The notes beneath the pieces were generated by a model, which saw only the letters and a program-made list of their open reading frames with translations, was not told the origin of the DNA and ran no database searches. From Eledone cirrhosa (Eukaryota), in the NCBI GenBank assembly GCA_964016885.1, contig CAXHJY010000529.1, positions 1-64,000 on the forward strand: DNA of 64,000 bases, given 5' to 3'. Each line of letters opens with the position of its first letter. The stretch's first letter is position 1. Both the position numbers and the translations under genes were made by a program. Of the stretch, positions 26,090-62,440 are shown one piece after another.

Positions 26090-26292
26090 GATTCCTAAAG
26101 GGGATCGGGAGGTGACCAGAGTTGAAGAAGGTACTCAATACATTGGTAGAGTATAGGTATCCTTATTTGATATAGAGAAGACTTCTACAGGACTAGAACT
26201 GTTTCATTCATATGAAATCACCAAGGACATTCCTGATGATTTCATACGAATGAAACAGCTGTAGTCCTGCAGAAGCCATTTCTATATCAAAT
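26090..26292. mobile_element. Penelope-like fold-back element, family B, with hammerhead core on +
   Basis: Imperfect palindrome 26165-26292; CTGATGA 26233-26239, GAAA 26252-26255, C-AGCT-G-TA; related copy at 62260-62440. Confidence 0.7.
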
Positions 26293-26423
26293 TTCTATAT
26301 ATATATATATATATATATATATATATATATATATATATATATATATATATATATATATATATATATATAAATTAATAAAAATAATGACTAGACAAAGAAA
26401 CAGTTCCTTATATTAAAAAATTA

Positions 26424-26557
26424 ATCATTTTACGATCGTTTCTAGGATATATATGTTAGTGTTGGTATGCATATCCTATAGATCTATGTAAAATTTTTAC
26501 AAACTATCAGAGGGAATATACATACCTACACATATATATGCTGTCTTCAGAAATAAT
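26424..26557 (-). ncRNA. Putative type I hammerhead ribozyme with extended stem II (partly degenerate)
   Basis: Minus strand: attattt-CTGAAGA-[cagcatatatatgt...acatatatatccta]-GAAA-C-GATC-G-TA-aaatgat; stem I attattt/aaatgat pairs. Confidence 0.65.
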
Positions 26558-27129
26558 GATATTTGTTTATTGAAAAAAACCAACAAAGATTTAATACAAT
26601 AGGTCTGTTATATATATATATATATATACATTTGATATATATATATATATATATATATATGTTTTTTCGGTATTTTTGGTATTATGTGGGTAAGTCTGCT
26701 TGCCACAATTTTCAATTTGTCAAGCTGTCTAAACGTATGTTATTACTCTAAGGCCTGCAACCTTATTGAGTGCTTTGCTGCTCATTCCTAATTGTAGGGG
26801 GTTAGCTTGGCCACAGCCAAAGCTTCGATTTTACTAAGCTTCCACTTGTATATATATATATATATATATATATATATATAAACAAACGTTTGGCCGTGAC
26901 CTGGAAATGTTAGGGAAATAACCAGAACAATGTCCAGACTATGCCTGTAAGACAGTTATTGACATCGACAACAAAGTATTCATTGTAAAGCAGATCCTGT
27001 ATCTAACAACTATGCCCCAATTGTCTAATATCAACACACACATATATATATATATATATATATATATATATATATATATATATATATGACATTAAGTTCA
27101 GTGAAGTCCATATGCAGTTGTATGTAAGT

Positions 27130-27222
27130 TTATTTCTACATCCAAGATATATAATTCGCTGGGGTTGACGAAAGGACAATGATACTCCTGCCCAATCTCT
27201 CGACCAGAGTTCGTCAGGTGGT
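27130..27222 (-). ncRNA. Degenerate hammerhead-like relic
   Basis: Minus strand: ccac-CTGACGA-a-ctctggtcga...tcaaccccagc-GAAt-tatata-TC-ttgg, then AATAAA; core mutated. Confidence 0.35.
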
Positions 27223-27397
27223 ATAAAATATTATATATATATATATATATATATATATATATATATATATATATATATATATATATATATATATAAATAT
27301 ATATATATATATATATATATAAATATATATATATATATATATATGCGTGTGTGTATGTCCACACACACACACACACATATATACATAACTACATGCA

Positions 27398-27478
27398 CAC
27401 AGAATGTCCCCCCAAAAATTATACCTGTTTATTAGAATGCTGTTGAAGTGTGTATACATTTTTGGAGGTCACCCTGTA
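27398..27478 (+). mobile_element. Tc1/mariner-like MITE (degenerate)
   Basis: tttattagaatgctgttgaagtgtgtatacatttttgg..caccctgTA, shared with 34699-34794. Confidence 0.65.
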
Positions 27479-27998
27479 TATATATGAATACATGTGCGTG
27501 TATACATGTGTGTGTAGTTTTACATTGCTATTATATAACATTTGTATATGTGTACATGATACATTGAAAACCACAGCATGTCTGAAAACATGCTTCATCT
27601 AGCACAATACATGGTTATTCAATTATCTACGTTAGTTGACGAAAGTTAGCAGACGACCGACATGGTATTACATGCTTTGTCTAATGGAGATTCGTTCTTC
27701 TTTCTGTATGAACATCTTCGCCTTTCTTGTGATTTCATGTTAAGTGCTATACTACAAAACATACACAGTCTGATAAAATATGTTTGCAACAGTGCTGTGG
27801 TTTTGACACTATTATAAGCTCACATTTTTACGAAAGGTCAATGGTACCGCAATAAAACTTGGTATAATATCGTTATAATGTAACGATACAGTTCGTTTCC
27901 CACTTGTTAAATATTACACTACACACACACAGACATGATATATATCAGGAATCAAACTCTAGAGTTTTCGACACTTGGGATAGCAGAGTGTGACTACA

Positions 27999-28094
27999 TT
28001 AGAAAGAACCGGGTCTCGTTTCGACTCTAGAATTAGTCTGGAACTAGCTGTCGAAACGGCAAGCGCTCTGCCGCCGTGACCCGGCTCTTTCTAA
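27999..28094. mobile_element. Penelope-like fold-back relic related to family A
   Basis: Inverted ends ttagaaagaaccgggtc / gacccggctctttctaa; gtc-GAAA-CGGC-aagcgctct-GCCG. Confidence 0.55.
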
Positions 28095-28101
28095 CACACA
28101 C

Positions 28102-28268
28102 ACGGTAGAGGGTCGGACACCATGCTTTGACGCATAGAGTTACGGTCCTTGCCAGTGTGACTTCAAATCCCCTCGAGGTTAACTTTGCCTTTCATCTTTA
28201 CGGGGTCGATAAAATAAAGTACCAGTAATGCACTGGGTATTTGCTGGCCTTGTGCCAAAAGTAGAAAA
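28102..28268 (+). mobile_element. SINE S1
   Basis: Same body and tail as 16058-16248. Confidence 0.9.
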
Positions 28269-59311: not shown

Positions 59312-59570
59312 TTGTTTCTACTTTAGGCACAAGGCCAGCAATTACCCAGTACATTACTGGTACTTTATTTTATTGACTCCGTAAGGATGAAAGGCAAAGT
59401 TAACCTCACAGGATTTGAACTCAGAACATAAAGGGCCGTAACACTATGCTGCAAAGCACGGTGTCTGACGTTATATCGATACTGCTAATAATAATAATAA
59501 TGTTTCTACTTTTGGCACAAGGCCAGCAATTACCCCACTATATTACTGGTACTTTATTTTATCGACCCTT
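59312..59570 (-). mobile_element. SINE S1 plus a second 3' partial copy
   Basis: Reverse-complement tail motif at 59313 and 59501. Confidence 0.88.
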
Positions 59571-59721
59571 AGTAATGATATTAATAATAAAGAAGAAACG
59601 AAGAAGGGAGAGAGAGAGAGAGAAAGAAAGAAGGACATAGAAAGAGAGGAGTGAGAGAGAGAGAGGGAGATCTGTTGATAAATATCAGTAAAGAGAGCAA
59701 CGATCTAAAAGTAAAACTCGT

Positions 59722-60615
59722 TGAAACCACCATCACACAAACCACCATCACACAAACCACCATTACATAAACCACAATCACACAAACCACAATCACACAT
59801 CACACATCACACAAACCACCATCACACAAACCACAATCACACAAACCACAATCACACAAACCACAATCACACAAACCACAATCACAATCACACAAACCAC
59901 AATCACACAAACCACAATCACACAAACCACAATCACACAAACCACAATCACACAAACCACAATCACACAAACCACAATCACACAAACCACAATCACACAA
60001 ACCACCATCACACAAACCACAATCACACAAACCACAATCACACAAACCACAATCACAATCACACAAACCACAATCACACAAACCACAATCACACAAACCA
60101 CAATCACACAAACCACAATCACACAAACCACCATCACACAAACCACAATCACACAAACCACAATCACAATCACACAAACCACAATCACACAAACCACAAT
60201 CACACAAACCACAATCACACAAACCACAATCACACAAACCACAATCACACAAACCACAATCACACAAACCACCATCACACAAACCACCATCACACATCAC
60301 ACATCACACAAACCACCATCACACAAACCACAATCACACAAACCACCATCACACAAACCACAATCACACAAACCACAATCACACAAACCACAATCACACA
60401 AACCACAATCACACAAACCACCATCACACAAACCACCATCACACATCACACATCACACAAACCACCATCACACAAACCACAATCACACAAACCACCATCA
60501 CACAAACCACAATCAGACAAACCACAATCACACAAACCACCATCACACAAACCACCATCACACAAACCACCATCACACAAACCACCATCACACAAACCAC
60601 CATCACACAAACCAC
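59722..60615. repeat. 15-bp minisatellite (acacaaaccacaatc)n
   Basis: Direct reading; source of the HTNHN / CDCGL ORFs. Confidence 0.97.
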
Positions 60616-60954
60616 GATCTACGTGACTATCCCTATCGATCAGATCGTTAGTGACCGCGGGAGGCTTATCAACACTTGTATGGATAACGAGTGTGTCTGT
60701 GTCTGCCTGTGTGTGCCTATCTACACACGTACGGATGTTGGTGTGTGTGTGTGTGTGTGTGTGCCTATCAACACACGTATGGATATATATGTGTATGTGT
60801 GCCTATCAACACACGTATGGATGTGTATGTGTGCGCGCGCCTATCAACACGCTATGGATATATATATGTGTATGTGTGCAGTTGTTTAGCCATATATATA
60901 TATATATATATATATATATATACTATATATATATATATATATATACACACATAC

Positions 60955-61015
60955 ACAGAGGAAATATTTATTAGAATGCTGTTGAAATGTCTATACATAT
61001 TTTGAGACACCCTGC
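60955..61015 (+). mobile_element. Tc1/mariner-like MITE, right half
   Basis: atatttattagaatgctgttgaa..gacaccctg. Confidence 0.65.
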
Positions 61016-61419
61016 ACTTCCACCAAGCGTGAACCTAATATAACTGTACAATTGCCGTCTTTTGTTTGTTCATTTTTCAACTATATGTGTGTGTGTGTGT
61101 GTGTGTGTGTGTGTGTGTGTGTGTGTGTGTGTGTGTGTGTGTGTGTGTGTGTGTGTGTGTGTGTGTCTGATGGTAGCTAAGATGCTTCCATATCTATCTC
61201 TCTCACACACTTACACCTCTCCAAGACAATGTCACTGGACCGAGATCTTTGGCGCTACGCAGTAATACAGAAGACCCGCCTTGCCTAAGTACAAAGCGAA
61301 ACCTACAGTCAGTAGGCACCTCTTACCAAAATACACCCCCGTCCCAACCCTACCCCCATCCCCATCTACACCACCCCTTTCGATGTAAAGCTATGTTGGC
61401 ACCACAACATCCAGTCCTA

Positions 61420-61680
61420 AATAAATGAGGTCGTGTAGGTGTCACGACAAAAAGTACACACAGTCCACGCTGTAATGTGGCCGTGTAGGTAACACGGTAA
61501 AAACCTCCCAGTCCACACTGTAAACGTGGTTGGTGTTAGGAAGGGCATCTAGCCGTAGAAAACCCGCCAGACAGTTCTGAGCAAGACAACCAATCTTGCC
61601 TCAAGTGGGACAATTTCCCGTCCAGACCCATGCTAGCGTGGAAAATGGACGTTAAACGATGATGACGATGATGATGATAG
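61420..61680 (+). mobile_element. SINE S3 / RTE-type tail with (GAT)n end
   Basis: gtggttggtgttaggaagggcatctagccgtagaaa..cccatgctagcgtggaaaatggacgttaaacgatgatg. Confidence 0.8.
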
Positions 61681-62028
61681 ATATCAAACCTAGTGTCGTT
61701 GGTAGAGTGTCAACCGCCCAGGACAACCTTTCAGTTTACACCACCTACACACAACACAACATATTTCTGGATTATACAAAATAACCGAATGTACTCCCCA
61801 CCCCCTCTCATACACGCACACGGCCCCTAGCTTGGCTGCTGAACCAAAAAGAAAAACCTAAAGTACCCATTCTGGGGTTAAAAGGGTTAGAAAGAGGAAA
61901 CAACGGTGTGTTTGGAGAATTTCACTGAAATTCTTTGTGTATCTCTATCGTTGATCTACCGATTTAGATAGATCTCATTCTCTCCCTCTTTCTCCTTTTC
62001 TGTAAGACAGATATATATATATATATAT

Positions 62029-62223
62029 AACAAAGGAATTGTGGTAAGGAACCAGATGGACCATAACGCACCAGAGTACTCAATACTTAAGGTAGTAGAG
62101 TGGGAAATAGGAAAAAGTATGACCCCGACGGCAGAGCTCAAGCCGTTTCGACGGCTATTTCTGGTCCAGAAATAGCCGTCGAAACGGCTTGAGCTCTGCC
62201 GTCGGGGTCATACTTTTTCCTAT
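62029..62223. mobile_element. Penelope-like element, family A, with a perfect 58-bp-arm palindrome
   Basis: 62107-62164 is the reverse complement of 62166-62223; GAAA-CGGC-ttgagctct-GCCG-TC; antisense tail 62029-62106. Confidence 0.8.
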
Positions 62224-62259
62224 ATATATATATATATATATATATATATATATATATAT

Positions 62260-62440
62260 ATATAGATGAGATTCTACAGGACTAGAACTGTTTCATTCTT
62301 TAGAAATCAACCTGATGATTTCTAAAGAATGAAACAGTTCTAGTCCTGTAGAATCTCATCTATATTAAAACTTTTATACTCTGCTATGTATTGAGTACCT
62401 TACTTACTGTGGTTACCTCCGATTCAACCCGGAATAACGT
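62260..62440. mobile_element. Penelope-like element, family B, with a perfect 50-bp-arm palindrome
   Basis: 62260-62309 is the reverse complement of 62316-62365; CTGATGA 62312-62318, GAAA 62331-62334; tail contains tattgagtac. Confidence 0.75.

Follow-up and report, generated by a model that had tools for sequence, protein, structure and literature searches.

Between positions 26090 and 62440 of a 64,000-nucleotide stretch of the Eledone cirrhosa genome (the window: positions 1 to 64,000 of contig CAXHJY010000529.1, assembly GCA_964016885.1) lies a set of short elements that carry hammerhead ribozyme cores, several of them as fold-backs of two head-to-head arms. These elements are almost certainly ends of Penelope-like elements (PLEs), and they make up six families, A to F, because the sites at 26233 and 62312 belong to one family (74% identity). 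Families A, B, C, D and F are the hammerhead-plus-tail ends of long PLEs whose frame for reverse transcriptase (RT) and GIY-YIG endonuclease (EN) lies elsewhere in the genome. The fold-backs are probably twin-primed reverse transcripts of the mRNA 5′ leader of autonomous PLEs, inserted in TA repeats.

Long Penelope-like elements are the parents of five families

One parent of family A (L299) holds, in this order, a hammerhead, a tail, a 758-codon open frame, an untranslated region (UTR) and a second hammerhead. Family B occurs as five tandem copies with a period of 3,542 bp, with open frames of 784–788 codons in the stretch fetched and at a second locus, and the frame of the family F parent lies at locus L308 (protein P0003). 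An endonuclease motif is found upstream of family C, at 1.29 kb in L319, L340 and L341 and at 0.57 kb in L343, and RT and EN motifs accompany family D in the broken copies L309–L311, with no intact frame for D among the copies fetched. Tandems that form pseudo-long terminal repeats (pseudo-LTRs) are present in L299, L245 and L257 (A) and in L533 and L534 (B), and in the masters the hammerhead and tail stand directly upstream of the open reading frame (ORF). For family E, no parent ORF was found within 1.5 kb in the 4 longest copies checked; elsewhere in the genome this family occurs in inverted pairs and has a tail motif resembling those of A and B.

The original prediction, made from the letters of the window, saw no attached RT or GIY-YIG coding sequence. 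This is true of the window, in which tblastn gave no PLE protein match, but the linked frames it proposed to look for exist elsewhere in the genome for A, B, C, D and F, and were not found for E. Its view of the elements as Penelope-related hammerheads in inverted arrangements with a preference for TA is upheld, and its term 'solo pseudo-LTR' comes close. An independent population of non-autonomous ribozyme elements or retrozymes is not supported: five of the six families run upstream into RT/GIY-YIG frames, the elements do not have the structure of short tandem monomers, and in most of them the ribozyme 5′ half is lost or buried.

Identification as PLEs was made by motifs and by-eye likeness to published alignments. 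The family A and B proteins (P0001 and P0002) have the RWR and DKT motifs, with DKT replacing DKG, and P0003 is without that region; all three, together with family C (read from L319), have a CxCx5C linker, no CCHH motif, and CxxC and CxH around conserved E and N. Family D, read from the broken copies L309–L311, has DKG, a CX4CX2C linker, CCHH cysteines and a C-terminal EN. Judged by these motifs, A, B, C and F are of Hydra type and D is of Neptune type. P0001–P0003 show 44–49% identity to the first of them. Protein relatives number 1,199, of which the best 120 stand at 39–54% identity, and two relatives (P0004 and P0056) carry PF01541; Pfam returned 0 families for P0001–P0003, and a PDB search for the parent proteins returned 0 matches.

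The family F ORF (L308, P0003) also has an asparagine-rich insert, like rotifer PLEs (PMC3846280), and the family F 3′ UTR (L191–L206) contains internal repeats of ~200 bp that include the 5′ half of the hammerhead. The otherwise unrelated tails of A, B and E have in common the letters TTGAGTRC (window 62394–62403 and 35060–35069; L468), a candidate protein-binding site, and similar letters stand in a published Hydra 3′ end (PMC8557442).

Elements of the window

Two fold-backs of family A are present. That at 62260–62440 (+) consists of a short arm at 62260–62309 (−) and a tail-bearing arm at 62311–62440 (+), with CUGAUGA at 62312 and the 5′ strand of stem I lost, and is 98.5% identical to the end of an ORF-bearing copy. 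A diverged subfamily forms the other Hydra-type PLE end, at 26090–26292 (−), whose tail-bearing arm spans ~26223–26090 (−) and whose short arm, at ~26229–26291 (+), has CUGAUGA at 26233; here the fold-back is imperfect, over 26165–26292. The family B fold-back at 34927–35115 (+), with a short arm at 34927–34981 (−) and a tail-bearing arm at 34983–35115 (+), is without the 5′ half of the hammerhead, and window 34984–35115 equals an intact tandem B master at 132 of 132 positions. A second B subfamily forms the fold-back at 62030–62223 (−; tail-bearing arm 62164–62030 (−), short arm (+) to 62223), a single short-end arm of B lies at 34606–34657 (+), and a B tail fragment adjoins a TA run at 49926–50000 (−).

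The family C fold-back, at 47696–47917 (−), has its tail-bearing arm at 47856–47696 (−), its short arm at 47848–47917 (+) and a core variant with A at position 4. Family E, at 47950–48120 (+), is a single-arm hammerhead element with a long stem II and CUGAUGA at 47992; it is an older element, with copies at 79–87% identity. Families D and F are represented by 5′-truncated 3′ ends with TA on both sides and no inverted arm. The D copy, at approximately 43147–44003 (−; ~860 bp), comprises the 3′ UTR and minimal hammerhead of a Neptune-type PLE, with CUGAAGA at 43265 (−) and a palindromic stem III. The F copy, 237 bp of a Hydra-type PLE at 26372–26609 (−), has the short 3′ end and a hammerhead with a ~100-nt insert in stem II and CUGAAGA at 26550 (−); further copies of it show 97–98% identity.

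Perfect fold-backs with arms of 50–58 bp lie at 34927–35037, 47791–47917, 62107–62223 and 62260–62365, and the three that were tested by folding gave z values of −18.6 to −23.4. Rfam returned sub-threshold microRNA (miRNA) matches for the hairpins, and no hammerhead family is among the 150 matches listed of 204 for the window. Four CUGANGA sites (22496, 27217, 48985 and 54864) failed the full hammerhead descriptor, which within the window was passed only by 47853 and by 4140, the latter probably a chance match.

All seven sites named in the original prediction do hold a hammerhead core or its 3′ half, with the correction that 26424 and 43236 are GAAAC boxes, the CUGANGA boxes lying instead at 26550 and 43265 on the minus strand. 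Its count of at least five unrelated elements agrees with six families once 26233 and 62312 are taken together. The size of 100–200 bp is exceeded by D and F, and 'fold-back' describes the A, B and C pairs, not D, F or the single arm of E. The reported adjacency to (TA)n holds for the named elements, which adjoin TA runs on at least one side; in the genomic samples described below, TA follows 80 of 84 A arms, 79 of 83 B arms and 65 of 69 C arms, the last figure inflated by an internal TA run, against a window background of 34%.

Hammerheads are complete in long copies

Complete hammerheads are found in long copies. Those of family A resemble Hydra examples given in File S2 of PMC8557442, with a CUGAUGA core, stem II flanked by U, stem III of 4 bp and a GUA site; those of family B have a U3/A8 core (sometimes C3/A8) with a long stem II, and covariation of U3 with A8 is reported in PMC4209133. 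Family C has A at core position 4 in these copies too, and family F the ~100-nt stem II. A descriptor scan of the kind originally proposed, run on 1.31 Mb of loci chosen around the elements, gave 336 distinct hits against 2 in the reversed control. The hits in these loci include many further hammerhead families with varied stems, one of them again of U3/A8 type, which suggests that the PLEs of the genome are far more diverse.

In a family A alignment of 13 rows, 92.9% of cells are paired and 2 stem I pairs show double changes, a slight covariation that comes from few lineages; in stub rows the 5′ strand may have been supplied by the partner arm. Parent sequences, too, do not favour the hammerhead fold (z 0.0 and −1.6). 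The A and B copies of the window no longer have stem I or are missing the entire 5′ half, and the C hammerhead is buried in a 58-bp hairpin; cleavage by window copies is therefore unlikely, and on their sequence most of them would not be able to fold an active hammerhead. We rejected a reading of the family A stem I 5′ strand as a longer junction sequence, since that strand arises by crossover with the arm paired to it. The CUGANGA hits found upstream of B were likewise rejected as the true core, being junction artefacts of the search pattern; the true B core is the U3/A8 type ~50 nt upstream.

Arms, tails and junctions

Across the 3.0 Gb of genome searched (1,796 contigs), exact motifs gave 16,398 hits for A, 54,367 for B, 28,271 for C and 4,256 for F, with 0 in reversed controls; these counts are of arms, not insertions, and miss diverged copies. 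A first look gave 2,459 candidates for family D and 1,693 for family E; the 40 scored in each family stood at 97–100% (D) and, apart from the window copy, at 79–87% (E). Arms were sampled as the first 30 hits plus 40 further regions per family from 100 listed places, giving 84 A, 83 B and 69 C arms, with 30 hits for F. Searches by similarity to whole fold-backs returned only look-alikes, and long upstream sequence was present in a minority of the position-ordered pattern hits.

Each family has two fixed 3′ ends, short and long, ~60–90 nt apart and followed by TA (A at +3/+14 and +82/+85; B at +24 and +104). A head-to-head partner of the same family accompanies 50 of 54 short A arms and 60 of 65 short B arms. 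The tail stands on exactly one arm in 71 of 78 pairs (A 30/33, B 32/34, C 9/11; a few long pairs are counted twice) and on both arms in none. Short arms pair with short arms, and arm lengths are correlated. Variants common to both arms number 38 in 54 family A fold-backs, against 7.3 with shuffled partners (30 loci of this sample were selected by similarity), and 25 in 23 family B fold-backs, against 7.4. Junctions vary widely in the position-ordered samples; two of the partner classes, a direct C partner and, for C arms, an inverted A partner, arise in part from TA runs and from the presence of a C copy within the reference L299.

Some pairs are non-nested, each arm holding sequence missing from the other, and at three places (L092:720–1500, L093:1028–1500 and L287) a B short arm is joined head to head to a different PLE family, which suggests that the two primings occasionally fall on different RNAs. 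Non-nested arms and mixed-family joints require two separate primings. The anatomy fits two primings on one RNA, as PMC11167929 predicts, and fits the single self-priming of PMC3846280 less well.

A sharp 5′ wall with promoter-like boxes

The 5′ ends of the arms are bimodal. In family A, 54 of 84 arm ends lie within 27 nt of the anchor; in B, 64 of 83 lie within 19 nt, 4 reach up to 73 and 15 lie beyond 310; in C, 24 of 69 lie within 29 nt. Short arms stop at or inside one A, a putative +1, in 53 of 58 cases in family A, 43 of 65 in B and 23 of 26 in C. Family F has 11 of 30 copies that stop at 107–118, with the mode at an initiator-like A at 111, 3 that stop earlier and none that stops from 119 to 249. 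Among exact copies of the window B variant, 1,449 of 8,250 pass the putative +1 by 8 nt, and none of the 30 followed further stops before 80 nt.

Compared with the initiator consensus, the A at the wall has an initiator-like context in A, B, C and F. Long arms have a TATA-like box at −30 (17 of 21 in A) or at −29/−31 (13 of 14 in B), for which the chance rate is ~1.2%, and CCAAT at −84 (15 of 21 in A) or at −87 to −92 (11 of 14 in B). By eye, copies of family E have a common start with TATA and initiator-like sequence. In family B the wall lies inside loop II, away from the stem edge, which makes it the case that best separates the readings. We infer that the wall would be a transcription start inside the pseudo-LTR.

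Several observations weigh against this reading. TATA at −30 was not seen in C or F, despite their initiator-like sequence, and the wall of C is weak, with 43 of 69 arms continuing beyond 45 nt upstream. In A, C and F the wall falls at the stem I 5′ edge as well, and structure or microhomology could therefore set it. In family B, 22 of 65 short arms scored 1–14 nt beyond the putative +1, of which the +7 group probably reflects an overlap between the two partner arms. A splice-acceptor-like YAG precedes the wall in A, B and C; a spliced-template reading was set aside, as by eye the junctions have no recurrent exon-1 sequence. Because the copies within a family are related, the promoter evidence amounts to two of four families plus E by eye. 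All arm samples come from the first 12–42 Mb of one contig (C1), at least 39 copies have one identical junction, which unit copying could also produce, and the transcription start is a prediction.

Proposed mechanism and alternatives

In the mechanism that we propose, the PLE protein would cut both strands of a TA tract, and reverse transcription would be primed at two sites flanking the tail. A lizard PLE has two RT start sites, and both strands are cut and extended in vitro (PMC11167929); a promoter has been described within a PLE pseudo-LTR (PMC2377424), and TATA and initiator (Inr) elements in a PLE promoter (PMC3846280). With the hammerhead and tail directly before the ORF, every mRNA would therefore have the RT start sites ~170 nt or less from its cap. 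RT primed near the mRNA 5′ end would run off the cap after 50–170 nt, the leader would be copied twice, and microhomology or a few filler bases would connect the two cDNA ends. Priming at the downstream pseudo-LTR of a tandem transcript would account for long copies. Stubs formed in this way are likely to be dead ends, not working ribozymes. Minus-strand strong-stop DNA of LTR elements forms when RT that was primed close to the 5′ end of the RNA runs off the cap, and in L1 twin priming two primers at one target produce an inversion. The parallel is one of analogy only: here the run-off product would be primed by the target, be produced twice and enter the genome as a duplicated hairpin. We put it at slightly better than an even chance that most insertions of the commonest PLE families are integrated strong-stop-like cDNA pairs, made by RT priming twice near the cap and running off at a TATA/Inr start.

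The same parents and the same twin priming could also act on full-length RNA at its 3′ pseudo-LTR; RT would then stall where the hammerhead is folded or bound by protein, or would be captured through microhomology between stem I and the partner cDNA. The stem I edge at the wall of A, C and F, the many A junctions that cross over within stem I and the absence of a TATA box from C and F would all follow. In A, C and F, however, RT is already past the whole hammerhead when it stops, the B stop falls in loop II exactly 29–31 nt below the TATA-like box, and the hammerhead fold is weak, as its z values show; we regard this alternative as unlikely, at perhaps one chance in several. Less probable again is that the stubs are self-propagating non-autonomous elements, SINE-like (short interspersed elements) or retrozyme-like, with each fold-back transcript copied in trans as one unit. 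Of 40 scored copies, at least 39 are identical over 186 bp including the junction, one junction is common to most of 30 C copies, and by eye two pairs of C copies have one-arm variants in common. Yet those searches selected for likeness to the query, and in position-ordered samples the junctions vary widely; the shared C junction does not need unit copying, being equal to two parent arms joined. The window B variant has an identical intact master, and the stubs are without the TATA/CCAAT region, are not tandem monomers and have lost the 5′ half of the ribozyme.

Near-perfect complementarity and correlated lengths of the arms are also what self-priming or snap-back of a single nucleic acid would give, for example on an antisense template as in PMC3846280. 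We think this improbable, as non-nested arms (a tail arm without the core, a short arm without the tail) need two primings, rare joints link different PLE families, as at L092, L093 and L287, and short-end arms also occur with long 5′ extensions. DNA-transposon miniature inverted-repeat transposable elements (MITEs) inserted at TA, the assignment that the original prediction named as able to overturn it, would likewise be short, palindromic, TA-flanked and very numerous. Here the inverted repeat is not symmetrical, since only one side bears a tail, 5′ ends and junctions are variable, and the sequence is continuous with RT-encoding elements; target-site duplications are unreadable inside TA runs, and the RT/GIY-YIG parents leave this origin with practically no probability.

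Comparison with known systems

The Hydra clade of C-terminal EN+ PLEs, which includes Hydra-1_Obim and the Repbase Penelope-n_HM/NV elements, was described by Craig et al. 2021 (PMC8557442). The Hydra-type families of E. cirrhosa agree with that description in RWR and DKT (read in A and B), the CxCx5C linker, the missing CCHH motif, and CxxC and CxH around conserved E and N; in (TA)n targeting and an inverted 5′-truncated copy with a tail; and in a 3′ hammerhead, often with U before and after stem II and an ACAG/CTGT stem III (File S2). They differ from it in that recent copies run to thousands or tens of thousands in each of several families, the unit is longer (3.5 kb in B against a published <3 kb), the two 3′ ends lie ~60–90 nt apart against a published 30–40, most A and B arms are stubs ending at one wall, and the cores include the variants U3/A8 in B and A at position 4 in C. 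As to the suggestion that these elements may be uncatalogued, the kind is known, with one published Octopus Hydra-clade family (File S1); by eye, the present families look different from it.

The Poseidon element PAc of Anolis (Frangieh et al. 2024, PMC11167929) belongs to another clade and has in common with our families a hammerhead immediately before the ORF start, a tail bounded by two RT start sites, cutting and extension of both strands, an AT-rich target and, as template, uncleaved RNA; leader-only head-to-head insertions or a start-site wall in genomic copies are not described in the available part of that paper. Family D resembles the Neptune clade in DKG, the CX4CX2C linker and two cysteines inside GIY-YIG, and also in its minimal hammerhead, which has an additional base ahead of a stem II closed by G-C, and a stem III that is palindromic (PMC4209133); the window copy is an ordinary 5′-truncated end without an inverted arm. 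The same paper notes opposite-strand hammerhead pairs 100–700 bp apart.

Metazoan non-LTR retrozymes (PMC7229834; bioRxiv 10.64898/2026.07.22.740005) are likewise short, non-coding carriers of type I hammerheads and kin of PLE pseudo-LTRs, but are described as head-to-tail tandems of 150–450-bp monomers, each with a complete ribozyme. Ours are head-to-head pairs with mostly incomplete ribozymes and coding parents, and the position lists hold head-to-head pairs and kilobase units in place of head-to-tail monomers of that size with no coding parent. Penelope expansions in coleoids have been noted (PMC8967140), and a 2026 annotation of Octopus vulgaris lists 31 recently active Penelope-like families (PMC13282606), with no occurrence of 'Hydra' or 'palindrom' in its main text as available.

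Inverted 5′ copy, tail, (TA)n targeting and hammerheads are thus already published Hydra/PLE traits. What is apparently new, as we have not found it in print, is that arms end at one sharp 5′ wall on an initiator-like A, preceded in families A and B by CCAAT and by TATA at −30. No description of leader-only, start-site-bounded PLE hairpin stubs appeared in the titles and abstract openings of the literature searched, which mostly did not extend to subscription papers.

Other features of the window

A frame at 25259–25648 (−) contains an ankyrin repeat (Pfam Ank_5, E 3.8e-08) and is probably a host-gene exon, presumably BCOR-like; the window elements may lie in introns of that gene. A 355-codon serine-rich open frame with no Pfam match, at 11091–12158 (−), is possibly also a host exon. 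More than 10 copies of a dispersed repeat of ~190–220 bp, at 75–90% identity and probably a SINE, lie at ~14750–15170, 16056–16257, 21083–21304, 28103–28277, 33594–33785, 41442–41633, 53232–53625 and 59295–59571. Short inverted-repeat elements in TA runs, resembling Tc1/mariner MITEs, were seen at 27428–27493, 34682–34811 and 60959–61014, and palindromes without a hammerhead core at 50371–50423, 24793–24993 and 54356–54503. Minisatellites of 55, 71 and 60 bp lie at 38619–39176, 40350–40630 and 46686–46988, with a long compound microsatellite at 1–3930; microsatellites dominated the output of the repeat search of the window.

Implications

For the origin of the head-to-head repeats and tails of PLEs, antisense self-priming has been proposed in one paper (PMC3846280), and two RT start sites have been demonstrated in vitro in another (PMC11167929). 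With tens of thousands of recent insertions, base-precise ends and intact masters, the models become testable by counting. Stubs of this kind are easily misfiled as MITEs, SINEs, miRNA hairpins or retrozymes. If the proposed mechanism is right, tens of thousands of perfect 50–60-bp hairpins would give the positions of the start site and of both RT start sites at single-base resolution and would favour twin priming on sense RNA as the source of PLE inverted repeats; and the B start site, lying inside the ribozyme, would mean that the B mRNA could not cleave itself. More speculatively, perfect double-stranded hairpins in introns could feed RNA editing or small-RNA pathways.

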